Source: a phage. Taken from it: DNA of 64,000 nt. The notes beneath the pieces were generated by a model. The model searched no databases, had not been told where the DNA came from, and saw nothing but the letters and a program-made list of their open reading frames with translations. The position numbers and the translations under genes were made by a program. Positions 7,447-25,716 of this stretch are shown piece by piece. The stretch lies in the sequence record PZ445428.1. One strand, given 5' to 3'. Every line of letters starts with the position of its first letter. Within the stretch, counting starts at the first letter, position 1.

Positions 7447-8856
7447 ATGTCTTTACAACTATTACGTAATACTCGAATCTTCGTGTCTACGGTTAAGACT
7501 GGTCACACCAAAGAAAACACGCAAGAGATTCTAGTTCAAGATGATATTTCTTGGGGTCAGGACAGTAACTCAACCGATATTACTGTTAACGAAGCTGGTC
7601 CGCGTCCAACTCGTGGTTCAAAACGTTTCAACGACTCCTTGAACGCTGCTGAGTGGAGCTTCTCTACTTACATCCTGCCTTACGCGGATAAAACTACTGG
7701 TAAGCAGATCGTTCCAGACTATATGTTATGGCATGCGCTCTCTAGTGGTAAGCCTATCGATCTCGATGGTGATACTGGAGCTCATACTAACGAAACCAAC
7801 TTCATGGTTAACTTTAAGGATAACGCATATCACGAACTGGCTATGCTGCACATTTATATCCTTACTGATAAAGCCTGGAGTTACATTGATTCCTGTCAGA
7901 TCAACCAAGCCGAAGTAAACGTAGATATCGAAGATATCGGTCGTGTAACTTGGTCGGGTAACGGTAACCAGCTGATTCCTTTGGATTCACAGCCATTTGA
8001 CCCTGATACTGTAGGTATCGATGATGAAACTTACATGACTATCCAGAGTTCTTATATTAAGAACAAATTAACTATCCTGAAGATCAAGGATATGGATACT
8101 GGTAAGGCATATGATATTCCGATCACTGGTGGTAGCTTCACAATCAACAACAACATCACCTACCTGACTCCGAACATCATGTCCCGTGTAAACATTCCAA
8201 TCGGTTCCTTTACTGGTGCATTCGAACTAACTGGTTCTCTGACTGCTTATCTGAACGATAAAGCTCTAGGTTCTATGGATCTGTACAAAGATCTGATTAA
8301 GACCCTGAAAGTAGTTAACCGTTTCGAAATTGCCCTGATTCTTGGTGGTGAATACGATGATGAGCGCCCTGCAGCTGTTCTGGTCGCTAAGCAAGCCCAC
8401 GTTAACATCCCAACTATCGAGACTGACGATGTACTTGGTACTTCTGTTGAGTTCAAGGCTATCCCTACCGATCTGGATACAGGTGATGAAGGTTACCTTG
8501 GTTTCTCTAACAAGTATACCAAAACTACTATCGCTAACCTGATTGCTACAGGTGACGGTGGTCAAGTTGCTCCGGTTCCAGTTACTGGCATTACTGTTAA
8601 GTCTGCTGGTGACGCTACTTCAGTTGAAAACAGCGCAACTCTTCAGATGACTGTAGATGTTCTGCCTGCTGAAGCTACGAACAAGGCTGTAACTTGGTCT
8701 ATCTCTTCTGGTACTGCTGCTACTATTGACGCAACTTCTGGTCTTCTGACTGCTGATGCTTCTAAAACTGGTGCAATTACGGTCAAAGCGGTAGCTAAAG
8801 ACGGTTCTGGTGTAGAAGGTACTAAGAGCATTACAGTTACTGCTTCTGGTGGCTAA
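7447..8856 (+). CDS. Major tail tube protein with C-terminal Ig-like (Big_2-type) domain
   Basis: 469 aa; AGGAGA RBS; C-terminal ITVKSAGDATSVENSATLQMTVDVLPAEATNKAVTWSISSG...ITVKAVAKDGSG resembles bacterial Ig-like domains; position upstream of tape measure. Confidence 0.75.
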   Translation: MSLQLLRNTRIFVSTVKTGHTKENTQEILVQDDISWGQDSNSTDITVNEAGPRPTRGSKRFNDSLNAAEWSFSTYILPYADKTTGKQIVPDYMLWHALSSGKPIDLDGDTGAHTNETNFMVNFKDNAYHELAMLHIYILTDKAWSYIDSCQINQAEVNVDIEDIGRVTWSGNGNQLIPLDSQPFDPDTVGIDDETYMTIQSSYIKNKLTILKIKDMDTGKAYDIPITGGSFTINNNITYLTPNIMSRVNIPIGSFTGAFELTGSLTAYLNDKALGSMDLYKDLIKTLKVVNRFEIALILGGEYDDERPAAVLVAKQAHVNIPTIETDDVLGTSVEFKAIPTDLDTGDEGYLGFSNKYTKTTIANLIATGDGGQVAPVPVTGITVKSAGDATSVENSATLQMTVDVLPAEATNKAVTWSISSGTAATIDATSGLLTADASKTGAITVKAVAKDGSGVEGTKSITVTASGG

Positions 8857-8860
8857 TTAA

Positions 8861-9757
8861 ATGTACTACTCTCTAATGCGAGAGTCGAAAGTTATAGTTG
8901 AGTACGATGGCAGGGCGTATCACTTTGACGCTCTGTCAAACTATGATATCAATACCTCCTACGAGGAATTTAAAACTCTTCGTAGGACTATTCATCGCAG
9001 AACCAACTATGCTGACTCTGTTATTAACGCACAAGCTCCATCATCAATATCGCTGGCTATAAATTTTAGTAATACCCTTACTGAGGCTAACTTCTTTGAA
9101 TGGATGGGCTTTGATAGAGAGGGTACTACCTTCCTACTACCACTTTATAGCACGAATATTGAACCAACAATGTTTAATATCTACATAGTTAATAAAGATA
9201 ATAACTGTGTATATTTTGAAAACTGTTTTGTATCTAACGTTGACTTCTCACTTGATAAGAATGTCCCTGTGCTGAATGTTGGTATTGAGTCTGGTAAGTT
9301 CTCTGAGGTATCCACGTACACTCCTGCTGGTATTGTTCAAGGCGAGGTTATGTCTTACAGCCCTCCTAGAGTAGCTACAAACAGTAATATTTTACCTGCT
9401 CTTTTATCCGCTTCTATGTCCTTCCAGCAGCAATGCTCTTGGAGAGAAGATAAAAGCGTATTTGACATAAACAAAATATATAATAATAAAAGAGCTTATG
9501 TTAATGAGATGAATGCTTCGGCAACAATTGCGTTCTACTACACCAAGCGATTTGCTGGTGATATGTTCTACAATATTGAACCTGAGACTGATATCCCTTT
9601 AACTATACGAAATGAACATATTTCGGTTGATTTCCCTTCAGCACGTATAACAAAACGCCTACAATTCTCGGATCTGTACAGGATTGAGTGGGATGTAATT
9701 CCTACTGCTGATTCTGATCCGGTAAGAATCGACTTCTTTGGAGAAATAAAGAAATGA
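8861..9757 (+). CDS. Minor tail protein (tail-tube-like, putative)
   Basis: 298-aa ORF between tail tube and tape measure genes; synteny only. Confidence 0.4.
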   Translation: MYYSLMRESKVIVEYDGRAYHFDALSNYDINTSYEEFKTLRRTIHRRTNYADSVINAQAPSSISLAINFSNTLTEANFFEWMGFDREGTTFLLPLYSTNIEPTMFNIYIVNKDNNCVYFENCFVSNVDFSLDKNVPVLNVGIESGKFSEVSTYTPAGIVQGEVMSYSPPRVATNSNILPALLSASMSFQQQCSWREDKSVFDINKIYNNKRAYVNEMNASATIAFYYTKRFAGDMFYNIEPETDIPLTIRNEHISVDFPSARITKRLQFSDLYRIEWDVIPTADSDPVRIDFFGEIKK

Positions 9758-10158
9758 TTAACTTAAAAGATATTACCCTAGATACTCGCTCTGTTACGCT
9801 TTCCTACCCTGGTATGCCTAACTTTAAGCTTGAACTGAACTACATGTCTCGTGCTACCTCTAAGCGTGTTATTGCTTCTGCAAAACGTGATGAGTGGGTT
9901 AACGGTACACTGTTACAAGTTCAGGATGATGACAAGTTCATCGAAGCTTTCGTTGACTCTGCTATCAAAGGTTGGACTGGTCTGACTATTGGTGATGTTG
10001 AGAAGCTGATGCTGATTGAAACTGAAGCTGATCCATCTACCGAAGTTCCTTTTAGCCGCGATAATGCTGTGATGCTAATGCAGAACTCTGCTGCGTTTGA
10101 TTCTTGGATCAACCAGACAGTGTTCCACTTAGACACTTTTCGTAGCCCAAAAGCGTAA
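9754..10158 (+). CDS. Tail assembly chaperone candidate
   Basis: 134-aa acidic ORF directly upstream of tape measure region; position typical of chaperone. Confidence 0.35.
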   Translation: MINLKDITLDTRSVTLSYPGMPNFKLELNYMSRATSKRVIASAKRDEWVNGTLLQVQDDDKFIEAFVDSAIKGWTGLTIGDVEKLMLIETEADPSTEVPFSRDNAVMLMQNSAAFDSWINQTVFHLDTFRSPKA

Positions 10159-10163
10159 ACAAC

Positions 10164-10220
10164 TTTTAGATGCCGTTGCCAAATTCGCAGACAAATGCGT
10201 TAAATCTTCGGCATCTAAAA
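10164..10220 (+). promoter_or_regulatory. 12-bp perfect inverted repeat enclosing the start of ORF 10220
   Basis: TTTTAGATGCCG (10164-10175) and CGGCATCTAAAA (10209-10220); right arm ends on the A of the ATG. Confidence 0.5.
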
Positions 10221-10588
10221 TGACTAAAGAACAATACTTAATAATGTGCGAGTCAATGGGTATCGAACCAGATCCTGATGTGATGCCTGTTGAACTCGAA
10301 GATTTTCCACCTATCGTATCTACTAGTATGCAAATTTATAACAGTCTCATTGATTGTTTCATACCGGGTGACTTTCCTATCTTTATAGGCAAAGACAAGG
10401 GTGCATTAGGTGTTTTATTTGATATCTATGGGATTACTGATCCGATAGAGAAAGAGTTCGTTCTACATATCATCAATATATTTGATTCGAAAGCAGTAGA
10501 CGCAGCTCGTAAGAGAGCCGAGAAACATGGGAAACAGAATGGTCGCACTCCGAACATTAAACCTCATGGAAGATCTCGAGCTCAGTAA
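10220..10588 (+). CDS. Hypothetical protein (tail assembly region)
   Basis: 122-aa ORF; ATG has no SD and lies inside a 12-bp inverted repeat; frame is open upstream from 10136. Confidence 0.3.
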   Translation: MTKEQYLIMCESMGIEPDPDVMPVELEDFPPIVSTSMQIYNSLIDCFIPGDFPIFIGKDKGALGVLFDIYGITDPIEKEFVLHIINIFDSKAVDAARKRAEKHGKQNGRTPNIKPHGRSRAQ

Positions 10589-10625
10589 AAGTTTCCTCCA
10601 ATGGGCGTTCCACGATGAGGCTTGG

Positions 10626-10656
10626 CTCTGGGTGATTTGCCCAGAGCCTTTTTTAT
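10626..10656 (+). terminator. Rho-independent terminator upstream of tape measure gene
   Basis: GGCTCTGGG-TGATTTG-CCCAGAGCC hairpin followed by TTTTTT. Confidence 0.65.
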
Positions 10657-10668
10657 TGGGAAAAATAA

Positions 10669-13600
10669 ATGACTGATAAGCTAATACGAGAACTACTGAT
10701 AGACGTAAAGCAGAAAGGGGCAACCCGTACTGCTAAATCTATTGAAAATGTTTCCAATGCGTTAGAGGATGCTGCTGCCGCTTCTGAACTGACTAATGAA
10801 CAGTTAGGAAAGATGCCCAAAACTCTTTATTCCATTGAGAGGGCGGCGGATAGAGCAGCAAAAAGTCTAACGAAGATGCAAGCAAACCGTGGTATGGCTA
10901 GTATAACTACTTCAATAACAAAAATTGGAGATAAGTTAGATGACTTAGCACTAGCAATGCTAGATGTTGCAGATAAAATGGAAAGTGGTTTTGACCACGT
11001 TGGTAAATCTGTAAAGGCTATGGGCAATGACGTAGCTTCTGCAACTGAAAAAGTTCAAGATAGGTTATACGATACAAATAGAGCCTTAGCAGGTACCTCT
11101 AGAGGCTTTAATGATACCACTACGGCAGCAGGACGCGCTAGCCGAGCAATCGGTAATACTTCTGGGTCAGCACGTGGCGCAACTCGTGACTTCGCAGCTA
11201 TGGCTAAAGTAGGAGGTGGTTTACCTCTAATGTATGCTGCAATCGCATCTAACGTGTTCGTTCTGCAATCTGCTTTCGAACAACTGAAGATGGGTGACCA
11301 GTTAAACCGTCTAGAGAAGTTTGGTACTATAGTTGGTACTCAGACGGGTACTCCAGTACAGACGTTGGCTAGATCTCTACAAGAAGCTGCTGGTTATGCA
11401 ATTTCTTTTGAAGAAGCAATGAGACAGGCATCTTCTGCTTCTGCATATGGTTTTGATGCAGAACAACTTAATAAGTTCGGTCTAGTAGCTCGTCGTGCTG
11501 CTGCTGTTCTTGGTGTAGATATGACTGATGCGCTTAACCGTGTAATCAAGGGTGTATCCAAACAAGAAATCGAACTTCTGGATGAGCTTGGTGTTACTAT
11601 TCGTCTTAATGATGCCTTCGCTGATTACGTTAAACAGCTTAATGCTGCTAACACTGGTATTACATATAATATTAATAGCCTTTCTTCCTTCCAGAAGCAA
11701 CAAGCATACGCTAACGCAGTAATCGCTGAATCTACTAAACGTTTCGGCTACCTGGACGACGTGCTTCGTGCAACTCCATGGGAACAGTTTGCTGCTAACG
11801 CTGATGCTGCCTTACGTAAGATTCAACAAGCTGCTGCTAAGTACCTTGGTCCAGTTATTGATTCTATTAACGCAGTATTCTATACTTCTCAAGCTTCTAT
11901 CTCTGCAACTGCGGCTAGGGCACAGGAGCAGACAAACAAATCGATTGATCCTAGTAACGTGGGTGCTGTAGCTCTTGGGCTCGAGGCATCAGAAGCTGGG
12001 TACAATAAGGCTCTCGATATGTATAGAGAATCTCTAGATAAGCGTAATAAGTTAAAGGCTGATCTAGATAAACGTATGCAGCAAGCTGACTTCTTTACCA
12101 CTGGTGCAATCCGCTCTGTGGCTCAAGGAGTTCCTTTAAGTGCTGCTGCATTGGGTGCTTCCGAGGAGAATAAGAAGTTTGTTGCTGATACCGCTGCAAT
12201 GGCATTACAAGTAGAACGTCTTGATAAGGAAGTTGCTGACTCTACAGATAACTTAGGAGCCTGGAAATCTGCGTATCAAGCTGCTGGAGCGGCTGCTGCT
12301 AAGGCAAATCCTGAGTTCCAAAAACAAATTAATCTGCAGAAAGATGCTAATGATCCGAGTGCAGTTTACGACTTCAATTCTGAAACTCTAAAAGGATTAA
12401 CGGAGCAGCAGAAAGCGTACAACCAGACTAAGAAAACTGCTAGTGACTTAGCAAATGATATTCAGAACATTGCTCAAAATACTAACACTGCTGCTAAGAC
12501 AAGTGCATCATTAGCTGATACAATTAAGACTATTGAATCGCTATCAGCTGGTACTGGTAAGAATGCTGATGAGTATGTTAAGAGCCTGAACTTAGGTTAT
12601 AATACTCTAAGTGAAATGAAAACTGCTTCCCAAGCACTTGCTGGGTACGTAAAACTAACTGGTGATGAAACTAAGAATCAGTTAGCTGTTCAGCAGAAGA
12701 TTGCCGAAGTATACAACCAGACTAAGGACAAAGAAAAGGCTCAGGAAGCTGGTAGACGTCTGGAAGTTCAACAGCTAGAAGAACAGGAAGCCGCACTTAA
12801 GCGTGTACTGGAAACTAACCAAGGTAATAAAGCAATTGAAAATGAGATTGCTAAAATCCAGTTAGAGAAGATCAAAATCGCTAACCAGAACATGGAAGCT
12901 CAGAAGAAGGTTAAGGATTATACGGATAAGATCCTTGGTGTCGATCGTGAAATTGCTCTGCTTAACAACCGTACTATGACGGATACTCAATATAAGTTAG
13001 CTCAGTTGAATCTTGAACTGACTATCGAGAAAGAGAAGTATGCGTGGTACTCTAAGCAGGTTGACAAACAGAAGGATGCTGAGCAATCAAGACGTGCTCA
13101 GGCACAGATTGAACGTGAAATCTGGAAGTTCCGTCAAGACCAGCAAATGGAAATGGCCAGTGGGCGCGAGAGAGCCTTAGGGATATCCCAAACCGAACGT
13201 AACGTTACTGGTGAATCTCAGCGTTTAACTGAACAGCAAGCTCTGTACCAAAGTCTACTGGAGATTACAAAAGGAAACGCACAAGCTCAGGAAGAGTATA
13301 AGCGTAAGATCCAAGAAACTTCGGCAGCTCTAGCACAACTCAAGATGCAACGTGATGCTCAAATGCAGCAATCTGTTACTTCTTCTGTTGGTGGCACTTA
13401 TACACCTACTACTGGACTGGAGGGTGATGATAAGGCCAATATGGATATGCAGAATAGAATGGCATCCTATGACCAGGCTATCTCTAAATTATCTGAGCTG
13501 AACTCTGAAGCAGCTGCAGTAGCACAAAGTATGGGTAATCTAACTAATGCTATGATTCAGTTCTCCCAAGGATCTCTGGATACCACATCTTTAGTAGCTG

Positions 13601-14349
13601 CTGGTATGCAAACTGTATCTTCAATGATTCAGTATAGTGTTGGTCAACAGGTAAGTGCGATTGATCAGGCTATTGCGGCAGAACAGAAGCGTGATGGTAA
13701 ATCAGAGGCATCTAAGGCTAAGATCAAGAAGTTAGAAGCTGAAAAGCTTAAGATCCAACAAGATGCAGCTAAGAAGCAAATCATCATCCAAACAGCAGTT
13801 GCAGTTATGCAGGCAGCTACTGCAGTACCTTATCCATTCTCTATCCCATTAATGGTGGCGGCTGGATTGGCAGGTGCTATGGCATTAGCTCAGGCGTCTT
13901 CCGCATCTGGTATGTCTAGTATTGGAGACACGGGTGGAGACACTGCTAGTTATTTAACTCTTGGTGAGCGCCAGAAGAACGTTGATGTTTCTATGTCGGC
14001 TAATGCTGGTGAATTATCCTACGTGCGGGGTGATCAAGGTATCGGCAATGCCAACTCCTTTGTCCCTCGTGCAGAAGGTGGTAATATGTACCCAGGAGTT
14101 AGTTACCAGATGGGTGAACATGGTACCGAGGTAATTACTCCTATGGTTCCCATGAAGGCTACTCCTGCTGATGAAGTTAAAGGCTCAGCTAGAGGATCAT
14201 CTGGTAGACCTATTGTACTGAACATCAATACAATGGATGCGGCGAGCTTCCGAGATTTTGCTTCGAGTAACAGTGCTGCGTTCAGGGATGCCGTGGAACA
14301 GGCTCTTAATGAGAATGGAACCACCCTGAAATCACTTGGTAATTCTTAA
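10669..14349 (+). CDS. Tape measure protein
   Basis: 1226 aa, long alpha-helical/coiled-coil Ala/Gln/Lys-rich body with hydrophobic segment near C-terminus; canonical position. Confidence 0.85.
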   Translation: MTDKLIRELLIDVKQKGATRTAKSIENVSNALEDAAAASELTNEQLGKMPKTLYSIERAADRAAKSLTKMQANRGMASITTSITKIGDKLDDLALAMLDVADKMESGFDHVGKSVKAMGNDVASATEKVQDRLYDTNRALAGTSRGFNDTTTAAGRASRAIGNTSGSARGATRDFAAMAKVGGGLPLMYAAIASNVFVLQSAFEQLKMGDQLNRLEKFGTIVGTQTGTPVQTLARSLQEAAGYAISFEEAMRQASSASAYGFDAEQLNKFGLVARRAAAVLGVDMTDALNRVIKGVSKQEIELLDELGVTIRLNDAFADYVKQLNAANTGITYNINSLSSFQKQQAYANAVIAESTKRFGYLDDVLRATPWEQFAANADAALRKIQQAAAKYLGPVIDSINAVFYTSQASISATAARAQEQTNKSIDPSNVGAVALGLEASEAGYNKALDMYRESLDKRNKLKADLDKRMQQADFFTTGAIRSVAQGVPLSAAALGASEENKKFVADTAAMALQVERLDKEVADSTDNLGAWKSAYQAAGAAAAKANPEFQKQINLQKDANDPSAVYDFNSETLKGLTEQQKAYNQTKKTASDLANDIQNIAQNTNTAAKTSASLADTIKTIESLSAGTGKNADEYVKSLNLGYNTLSEMKTASQALAGYVKLTGDETKNQLAVQQKIAEVYNQTKDKEKAQEAGRRLEVQQLEEQEAALKRVLETNQGNKAIENEIAKIQLEKIKIANQNMEAQKKVKDYTDKILGVDREIALLNNRTMTDTQYKLAQLNLELTIEKEKYAWYSKQVDKQKDAEQSRRAQAQIEREIWKFRQDQQMEMASGRERALGISQTERNVTGESQRLTEQQALYQSLLEITKGNAQAQEEYKRKIQETSAALAQLKMQRDAQMQQSVTSSVGGTYTPTTGLEGDDKANMDMQNRMASYDQAISKLSELNSEAAAVAQSMGNLTNAMIQFSQGSLDTTSLVAAGMQTVSSMIQYSVGQQVSAIDQAIAAEQKRDGKSEASKAKIKKLEAEKLKIQQDAAKKQIIIQTAVAVMQAATAVPYPFSIPLMVAAGLAGAMALAQASSASGMSSIGDTGGDTASYLTLGERQKNVDVSMSANAGELSYVRGDQGIGNANSFVPRAEGGNMYPGVSYQMGEHGTEVITPMVPMKATPADEVKGSARGSSGRPIVLNINTMDAASFRDFASSNSAAFRDAVEQALNENGTTLKSLGNS

Positions 14350-14457: not shown

Positions 14458-15072
14458 ATGAGACTACCAGACCCATACACGAACCCAGAGCTATCAGGGT
14501 TAGGTTTTGAAAGCGTTAACTTAGTAGACAATGACCCTATGATTCGTGATGAATTACCTAATGGTAAAGTTAGGGAGGTTAAGGTGTCTGCTCAATATTG
14601 GGGTATTAATATCTCTTATCCAGAATTATTCCCAGATGAGTTTGCAAAATTAGACTCATTTATACTTGACTATAAAAGAAAGGGTGATTATATTGATGTT
14701 CTACTACCTCAATATGAAGCTTTTAGAGTACGTGGTGATACTAGTGCTGTGAATATTCCAGCAGGTCAAAAAGGTTCCACTGTTATGATGGATACTAAAG
14801 GAACACTACGTGGGCTACCAAAGCCAGGAGATTTATTTAAACTCTCCAATCATCCTAAAGTATATAAAATCACTTCTATCACTACAGCAGGCAACTCATG
14901 GCAACTGAGTATTTATCCTGATCTGTTCATTACTACTACAGGTAGTGAAAAGCCAGTATTCAATGGTATTTTATTCAGAACTAAGCTCATGAATGGGGAT
15001 AGTTTTGGCTCTACGTTAAATAATAACGGTACTTATTCTGGTATTTCACTTTCCTTGAGGGAAAGTCTATGA
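14458..15072 (+). CDS. Distal tail protein
   Basis: 204-aa ORF immediately after tape measure gene, own promoter and AGAGGAG RBS; synteny with T5-type tail tip. Confidence 0.55.
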   Translation: MRLPDPYTNPELSGLGFESVNLVDNDPMIRDELPNGKVREVKVSAQYWGINISYPELFPDEFAKLDSFILDYKRKGDYIDVLLPQYEAFRVRGDTSAVNIPAGQKGSTVMMDTKGTLRGLPKPGDLFKLSNHPKVYKITSITTAGNSWQLSIYPDLFITTTGSEKPVFNGILFRTKLMNGDSFGSTLNNNGTYSGISLSLRESL

Positions 15073-25682: not shown

Positions 25683-25688
25683 AAGAAA

Positions 25689-25716
25689 ACCCCAGTGGAT
25701 TGTCCACTGGGGTTTA
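25689..25716. terminator. Bidirectional terminator between convergent late (+) and early (-) modules
   Basis: AACCCCAGTGGA-TTGT-CCACTGGGGTT hairpin flanked by A-run on one side and T-rich run on the other. Confidence 0.65.

Follow-up and report, generated by a model that had tools for sequence, protein, structure and literature searches.

Tail assembly chaperone genes of the lambda type yield a short and a fused protein in a fixed ratio, and neither product is present in virions. The frameshift that joins the G and T parts is -1, -2 or +1 in different tailed phages, and the ratio in lambda is 30:1 (PMC5009743); forward frameshifts are also included in the SEA-PHAGES data. Here, we describe a locus in a 64,000-nucleotide (nt) stretch of phage DNA (sequence record PZ445428.1, in the following "the window", with position 1 as its first letter), in which two open reading frames (ORFs), A and B, precede the tape measure protein gene and a perfect inverted repeat of 12 bp reaches up to the annotated start of ORF B. 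Between positions 9700 and 10700, the window is 100% identical to Escherichia phage TrudiGerster (Bas27, MZ501108; Epseptimavirus, Demerecviridae) and 84-89% identical to ~430 other T5-like phages. Judged from sequence comparison, ORF A and ORF B very probably constitute one recoded gene, which would represent the lambda G/GT type in a +1 form. Systems of this kind are well known; their presence, direction and site in T5-like phages appear to be unrecorded, and specialists may know of them.

The likeness to lambda gpG/gpGT (Levin 1993; Xu, Hendrix and Duda 2004; summarised in PMC5009743) starts with the layout of two overlapping ORFs directly before the tape measure gene, with the caveat that in T5 an HNH endonuclease gene separates B from the tape measure gene. 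As in lambda, the second ORF lacks a start or Shine-Dalgarno (SD) sequence of its own, the candidate shift site lies a few codons before the first stop, and a sister clade of the same family carries a textbook -1 heptamer with a hairpin. ORF A and ORF B match positions 12-139 and 174-257, respectively, of a single 258-position chaperone family (PHROG 313), with ORF B additionally matching PHROG 3914, and a chaperone-like fold is conceivable for ORF A, whose best structural match is the HK97 tail assembly chaperone. On the other hand, the direction at our locus would be +1 instead of -1, the site is UUU_C and not X_XXY_YYZ, and there is no stimulator at 5-9 nt. Besides, no sequence similarity to G or T is detectable (Pfam and PDB sequence searches gave no match), and the two products are predictions here. 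Closer in direction are the haloarchaeal virus HSTV-2 (probably +1) and many actinobacteriophage annotations, where the G-T fusion likewise proceeds via the +1 frame, although the protein families and hosts are different ones.

The evidence for a fused reading begins with the 61 nt that separate the TAA at the end of ORF A (10158) from the ATG annotated as the start of ORF B (10220). Among 28 relatives from IMG/VR, this spacer contains not a single insertion or deletion, and its substitutions are of codon type when read in the frame of ORF B (e.g. GCC to GCT, TTA to CTA, or a TCT to AGC serine switch). Variable columns between 10159 and 10219 fall on third, first and second B-frame codon positions at 15:6:1, much like the 89:26:4 obtained for ORF A itself. 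The distance between a conserved Phe codon near the end of ORF A and the position of Met 10220 amounts to 82, 85, 73, 70 or 67 nt where ORF B lies in the +1 frame and to 65 or 68 nt where it lies in the -1 frame, that is, within each group it differs only by multiples of three. When the translation of 10136-10204 was modelled with AlphaFold (AF2), a helix was predicted with a local confidence score (predicted local distance difference test) of 91-94. By this comparison, the 61-nt "intergenic" spacer is evolving as coding sequence in the ORF B frame. A three-frame translation revealed no in-frame ATG, GTG or TTG between 10133 and 10220, and the spacer should therefore be translatable only by ribosomes that arrive from ORF A in another frame.

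The annotated start of ORF B shows a complementary pattern. No match of at least 3 nt to AGGAGGT is found at -20 to -4 of ATG 10220, compared with matches of 3-5 nt for the neighbouring genes, so that the earlier note on this DNA had rightly described this ATG as devoid of an SD. Across the family, the position is occupied by Met, Ile, Val, Phe or Leu: Klebsiella and Enterobacter phages have Ile there, several Vibrio phages have Leu or Phe, and the clade with the -1 arrangement has Ile or Val. Where it is not Met, the annotated starts have been placed further downstream. Given a spacer that is coding, that lacks a start codon and that is followed by a non-conserved ATG, 10220 does not qualify as a conserved start.

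We compared the relative frames of the two ORFs in 83 loci drawn from the window, phage records and IMG/VR contigs. ORF B lies in the +1 frame of ORF A in 71 loci, including those of Klebsiella, Enterobacter, Vibrio, Proteus and Aeromonas phages at 28-57% identity as well as environmental contigs, and in the -1 frame in the other 12. When the fused sequence was used as a tblastn query, both halves appeared side by side and in two pieces in 59 of 59 full-length rows among the matches listed. In the window, the +1 frame is open from 10133, right after a TAG (10130-10132), and overlaps the end of ORF A by 26 nt; the overlap had been recognized before, yet with the opening set at 10136.

Within the region where a shift would have to occur, one codon stands out as the only candidate site that the 71 loci have in common. 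Only three columns (W74, G76 and F129) are invariant in 66 A-type proteins of 26-66% identity, and F129 is encoded by the TTT at 10138-10140. All distinct junction sequences examined among the 71 +1 loci have TTT for this Phe, always followed by a C; the next codon is mostly CGT, but also CGA, CGC or CAC. In ~14 clusters below 70% identity, F129 is TTT throughout, whereas another conserved Phe taken as a control, F115, is TTT in nine and TTC in five. The conserved TTT runs counter to the phage's own avoidance of TTT before C: in the 52 ORFs of the window, Phe ahead of a C-starting codon is written TTT 24 times versus TTC 103 times, and TTT CGT is seen three times against 8.2 expected. In Vibrio phage D261b, where ORF A ends with AAC AAC TTT CGT TAA, the overlap is just 14 nt, leaving UUU_C as the only candidate site. 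Finally, the sole polymorphism between 10138 and 10158 among T5-like phages, C or T at 10147, is synonymous in the +1 frame (GCC/GCT) and exchanges Pro for Ser in frame 0, a pattern as expected if the ribosomes that matter had already shifted upstream. As to codon context over the full window (1-64000, 52 ORFs), TTT precedes a pyrimidine-starting codon in 39 of 333 cases (~117 expected) and TTC does so in 204 of 380, a strong bias that fits a genome-wide avoidance of shift-prone UUU_Y.

The 12 loci of the -1 group (L073-L084, all environmental IMG/VR loci) code for the two-part protein as well. Their sequence around the homologous Phe codon is GAA AAT TTT ACN, i.e. they possess the slippery heptamer A_AAU_UUU (e.g. 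L073 1285-1345), and 8 nt after it follows a hairpin of 9-12 bp (CAAGUA.../...UACUUG) that contains the 0-frame stop and whose inner pairs covary, with A:U, U:A and C:G found at one position. No gap interrupts the alignment of the fused +1 and -1 clade sequences where it crosses the junction. Another locus, L067, reads GAA AAT TTT CGT and hence combines both motifs in a +1 arrangement. That one Phe codon is used for recoding both ways would be hard to explain unless the fusion protein were the selected product.

What these comparisons show is that the spacer is coding, that the frames stand in a +1 relation and that UUU_C is conserved; slippage at UUU_C, its efficiency and the role of the stem are what we infer. 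The majority of ribosomes would stay in frame 0 throughout ORF A and terminate at TAA 10156-10158, yielding the 134-aa chaperone. A minority would, by what seems the most economical mechanism, slip by +1 with tRNA-Phe in the peptidyl (P) site on UUU 10138-10140, re-pairing to UUC 10139-10141. Sequence context would permit this, since ACU UUU CGU (10135-10143) places a P-site UUU ahead of a pyrimidine, and as regards anticodon pairing, the slip would exchange the G:U wobble at UUU for G:C at UUC. The shifted ribosomes would then read GUA 10142 as their next codon and go on to translate the spacer and ORF B as far as TAA 10586-10588. The predicted product is a fusion of 277 aa, composed of residues 1-129 of A followed by V130...Q277, in which ATG 10220 would specify Met156 rather than initiate translation and whose C-terminal domain would be made by frameshifting only. 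The low efficiency of an unstimulated shift would suit a G:GT-like ratio, and the junction peptide predicted upon tryptic digestion for a +1 shift at UUU_C is DNAVMLMQNSAAFDSWINQTVFHLDTFVAQK.

Other ways of joining the two frames were considered and rejected. Slippage by -2, as reported for phage Mu, was ruled out because re-pairing to CUU/ACU is not conserved here; Mu moreover differs in protein families and hosts. Transcriptional slippage was dismissed in view of a run of only 3-4 T. The sole canonical -1 heptamer, C_CCA_AAA (10146-10152), would lead to a stop at 10167 after five codons, and most relatives have UCA. A signal of the prfB type is not in place either, as the aminoacyl (A) site holds CGU and not a stop codon, which follows five codons later, and the upstream sequence CACTTAGACACT lacks an SD-like run.

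The putative site has close relatives outside tail genes. A P-site UUU followed by C, allowing tRNA-Phe to re-pair with UUC, is shared with the E. coli argI error site, with Yersinia YopN-TyeA and with influenza A PA-X, for which the minimal cassette is UCC_UUU_CGU (PMC5009743). ACU_UUU_CGU of the window includes the same UUU_CGU hexamer as PA-X. The CGU codon of PA-X is said to be a rare one in the host, where its decoding is slow, whereas CGT is the most used Arg codon in the window. And unlike argI and YopN-TyeA, which are errors or single cases, UUU_C is conserved across the whole phage family and beyond.

Several aspects speak against a +1-recoded gene. The fused protein, the precise codon of the slip and how often it would occur have all been derived from sequence. 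With CGU accounting for 453 of 812 Arg codons in the window ORFs, a "slow A site", the usual helper invoked for +1 shifts, is absent, and no tRNA genes are found in the 64-kb window. Neither an SD-like sequence nor a nearby stimulatory structure is conserved around UUU_C in the +1 loci. A full-length homologue in a single ORF was not found among the best 150 of 440 family matches. Besides, a published note describes the T5 chaperone as lacking a predicted frameshift signal. In the literature on T5-like or Tequintavirus chaperones, we found no description of a frameshift; the Sugarland note alone surfaced when Demerecviridae or "T5-like" was combined with frameshift, while a broader final search was not screened in detail.

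A few sequences seemed to deviate from the general pattern. Two proteins resembled natural in-frame A-B fusions. P0106 stems from an indel-ridden contig (L093) with several frame breaks in the gene, where the loss of 1 nt from a homopolymer explains the junction, and P0003 has a garbled C-terminus and was judged to be an indel artefact from the protein sequence alone. Scans for loci with the single proteins P0020 and P0053 gave no match. In Aeromonas phage AhP_Mru1 (L039; PV190393.1 72985-74941, reverse complement; T5-like), the B frame appeared closed, which is accounted for by in-frame TAG codons throughout its genes: these lie at 553, 643, 715, 787, 814 and 901 in the A frame and at 1103 and 1238 in the B frame, with two more in the junction linker, the true stop of ORF A being TGA. 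The GenBank record of this phage is annotated as 377 tiny ORFs. From the sequence, this looks like either amber recoding, with TAG read as sense, in a Demerecviridae phage or a systematic sequence problem.

We now turn to the inverted repeat, which lies within the shifted-frame coding sequence. As reported in the earlier note, its arms (10164-10175 and 10209-10220) are complementary at 12 of 12 nt (100%) across an interval of 33 nt, and the right arm has the A of ATG 10220-10222 as its last base. The predicted RNA fold of a 111-nt segment is dominated by this stem (-25.2 kcal/mol, z = -3.4), with 2 of 200 shuffled sequences being equally stable. Perfect inverted repeats of at least 12 bp with a loop of at most 40 nt exist at two places in the window, compared with 0.2 expected, and 17% of first-order Markov random sequences contain at least one. 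By itself, the 12-bp repeat is thus unusual but not overwhelming. The other such repeat of the window, at 25687-25715, consists of AAACCCCAGTGGA and TCCACTGGGGTTT with a loop of 3 nt. As a further observation, a small out-of-frame ORF of 17 codons without SD starts in the left arm (ATG 10170) and ends at the right arm (TGA 10221); its ATG belongs to the conserved GAT GC codons, and the small ORF is probably meaningless.

Conservation of the stem, on which the earlier proposal of a hidden start had been made to depend, was found in part. Of 36 distinct T5-like sequences, 35 retain a paired 9-bp core (10167-10175/10209-10217), and the remaining one has an A:C mismatch at the innermost pair, 10175:10209, corresponding to a Val-to-Ile change. 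Pairs 10165:10219 and 10166:10218, in contrast, are formed in only 7 and 1 of the 36, respectively, so that the perfect 12-bp form is specific to the TrudiGerster lineage and the other T5-like phages share the core alone. Apart from the A:C case, all changes at core positions preserve pairing: 10174:10210 is C:G in the TrudiGerster lineage and U:A elsewhere among T5-like phages, and 10171:10213 has changed from U:A to U:G in three sequences. This covariation rests on very few independent events in closely related genomes. Outside the T5-like group, no equivalent stem was detected; some +1 lineages form different structures that lie nearer or farther away, and many form none. Rfam 15 covariance models yielded three sub-threshold chance matches between 9700 and 10800, none of them at the stem. 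Taken together, the stem is probably a real mRNA structure that is specific to this clade.

How much of this could be accounted for by chance, i.e. by a functionless repeat that persists merely since the codons around it are conserved and the genomes closely related? We doubt this, while regarding it as a possibility to be taken seriously. It would fit the frequency with which such repeats arise in random 64-kb sequences, the restriction of the 12-bp form to one lineage and of any such stem to T5-like phages, and the fact that both compensatory changes map to one single branch. Against it, of the synonymous recodings that keep the peptide, 99.85% fold less stably than the native stem in the window, 98.4% in T5 and 98.7% in both LVR16A and L004, albeit in the fifth phage considered, the T5-like L016, the native fold beats only 87% and is thus no better than 13% of recodings. 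Also hard to reconcile with chance are the third-codon positions of the core, three of six of which never vary and three of six vary in a pair-preserving manner only, whereas 12 of 15 neighbouring third positions vary freely, and the occurrence of the U:A to U:G change on two different backgrounds.

If the stem is functional, the question is what it might act upon. The earlier note had proposed that it hides the start of this ORF, ORF B, implying regulated or coupled translation, and ORF B could accordingly be an independent gene that starts at ATG 10220 and needs unmasking or coupling via re-initiating ribosomes that melt the stem. The stem does cover the region before the ATG, the mean probability of being unpaired between -12 and +3 being 0.11 here and 0.29-0.36 in other T5-like phages; ribosomes terminating at the 0-frame stop, 5 nt before the stem, would partly open it; more family members have Met at this position than any other residue; and ORF B is a separate protein in all database annotations. 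However, an independent ORF B offers no account of why the upstream 61 nt, predicted to form a helix and lacking a start codon, evolve as B-frame codons, nor of the missing SD, nor of the replacement of Met in Klebsiella, Enterobacter and several Vibrio lineages and in the -1 clade. It further leaves aside that the geometry of A and B differs in D261b and other phages while the +1 relation and UUU_C persist. In addition, in most T5-like relatives the conserved stem falls 3 nt short of the ATG. The hidden start is therefore not supported, and independence of ORF B appears very unlikely; a coupling of the two ORFs through the +1 overlap does hold, but the evidence for it points to frameshifting. 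In the same vein, hairpins that occlude starts or SDs (translational operators, RNA thermometers, coupled-gene stems) share with our locus a stable stem overlapping an AUG and the 12 nt before it; yet here, from the sequence, the AUG at 10220 shows no sign of being a functional initiation codon, and the stem, if active there, would suppress a cryptic start.

Alternatively, the stem might be a 3' frameshift stimulator, acting either remotely on UUU_C or on a T5-like slip at AAA_G (10150-10153), from whose P-site codon it lies at the canonical +15. Such a role would agree with a stem that is non-random given the protein and conserved in T5-like phages, with stable downstream structures in several other +1 lineages (z -2 to -5.5), and with the antizyme +1 shift, which is stimulated by a downstream structure (PMC10274946). 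Moreover, all 36 distinct T5-like sequences carry CAAAAGCGTAA (10148-10158) unchanged, eight loci of which had been retrieved by a pattern containing that string. But the stem begins 23 nt after UUU (20 nt after CGU), which is too far for a classical stimulator at 5-9 nt and contrasts with the 8 nt in the -1 cassette of the sister clade, and it is absent or located elsewhere in Klebsiella, Enterobacter, Proteus, D261b and many environmental +1 lineages (z about 0). Outside T5-like phages, AAA_G is replaced by AAA_T, AAA_A or no such codon before the stop, and the C/T polymorphism at 10147 behaves as if the shift had taken place further upstream. We consider a stimulatory role quite unlikely.

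Within a +1-recoded gene, then, the position of the stem relative to the 0-frame stop suggests another use. As it begins 5 nt after this stop, most ribosomes would never fully open it, and as most ribosomes stop ahead of it, it should stay closed most of the time. A closed stem would bury AUG 10170 and AUG 10220 in a ribosome-poor stretch and might thereby block initiation or re-initiation, such that the T-like domain is made only in fused form and in small amounts. We put this forward as the likeliest, if doubtful, function. Other Met-bearing lineages do not consistently occlude that codon, and because the occlusion test across Met lineages gave a mixed result, such a role is a guess. A broader proposal would be that the stem is a new accessory element of +1 frameshift genes, which insulates the downstream frame or tunes the shift remotely (e.g. 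by ribosome queuing), and that Demerecviridae and their relatives have switched between -1 (A_AAU_UUU plus hairpin) and stimulator-free +1 (UUU_C) recoding at one Phe codon. This seems unlikely at present.

The features of the locus are compiled in Table 1. The earlier note had correctly placed the repeat just upstream of the tape measure gene, as 10669-14349 matches a tape measure PHROG. The gene order from tail tube to tape measure is the same in the annotated Markadamsvirinae records and a Proteus record, and in Vibrio records the A-B pair follows the baseplate tube gene, the next gene being annotated merely as hypothetical. In every record examined, A and B are annotated as two separate coding sequences, without a fused product as judged from database names and lengths. 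GenBank labels both as "hypothetical protein", and the RefSeq entries of T5 and others name both "tail assembly chaperone" or "tape measure chaperone". The annotated length of ORF B among T5-like phages is 110, 115, 121 or 122 aa, as the choice of start differs between annotators.

Table 1. Positions of the features discussed in the text, in window coordinates
Feature	Positions	Strand	Remarks
Tail tube protein	7447-8856
Baseplate tube protein	8861-9757
ORF A	9754-10158	+	134 aa; gpG-like tail assembly (tape measure) chaperone; made by standard decoding in frame 0
TAG, +1-frame stop	10130-10132	+	from three-frame translation; 5' limit of the region where the shift must occur
Proposed +1 shift site UUU_CGU	10138-10143	+	Phe129-Arg130 in frame 0; after the shift UUC GUA
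+1-frame part of predicted gpGT-like fusion	10142-10588	+	148 codons and stop; PHROG 313, PHROG 3914
Linker of predicted frameshift product	10142-10219	+	VAQKRKQLLDAVAKFADKCVKSSASK; annotated as ORF A tail and non-coding spacer
TAA, 0-frame stop ending ORF A	10156-10158	+	5 nt before the stem
Left arm of inverted repeat	10164-10175	+	TTTTAGATGCCG; L-L-D-A in the +1 frame; contains out-of-frame ATG 10170
Small inner helix in the 33-nt loop	10186-10189 / 10196-10199	+	predicted fold; one compensatory pair, U:A to or from C:G, among T5-like phages
Right arm of inverted repeat	10209-10220	+	CGGCATCTAAAA; S-A-S-K in the +1 frame; last base is the A of ATG 10220
ATG annotated as ORF B start	10220-10222	+	internal Met156 of the predicted fusion
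ORF B as annotated	10220-10588		122 aa; ends at TAA 10586-10588
Tape measure protein gene	10669-14349	+	PHROG 3779, 2059 bits; client of the chaperone
Distal tail protein	14458-15072

Some observations concern the surroundings of the gene. In T5 (L031, NC_005859 95777-96529), the HNH endonuclease gene that sits between the chaperone pair and the tape measure gene is T5.141, and the TrudiGerster window has at the same place (10589-10668) an 80-nt spacer only. Within this spacer, at 10624-10648, there is a terminator-like hairpin (GGCTCTGGGTG ATT TGCCCAGAGCC, then TTTTTTATT). A rho-independent terminator is also annotated in T5 just 3' of the ORF B homologue, where the HNH gene and not the tape measure gene comes next; a terminator directly ahead of an essential late gene is odd. 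Besides, the 90%-identity cluster with the 134-aa chaperone also contains baseplate tube proteins of 294-299 aa, including the representative. As the two genes overlap by 4 nt in the genome, this mixed cluster looks like a clustering artefact of the collection.

T5 is a model siphophage, with relatives comprising hundreds of sequenced and therapeutically used phages. If there is indeed a +1 shift, more than 900 genomes would be misannotated in the same way, and the T-like domain would be 26 residues longer at its N-terminus and exist only as a fusion. For phage engineering, this would imply that a supposedly silent recoding of TTT 10138, or the cloning of ORF B from its ATG, would break tail assembly. 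T5-like phages would then provide a bacterial example of conserved, apparently stimulator-free +1 frameshifting at UUU_CGU, the hexamer of PA-X, and the -1 shift at the same codon in the sister clade would constitute a natural experiment on how the direction of frameshifting evolves. Should the proposed switch between the two modes be correct as well, the family may serve as a natural system for the exchange of recoding signals.

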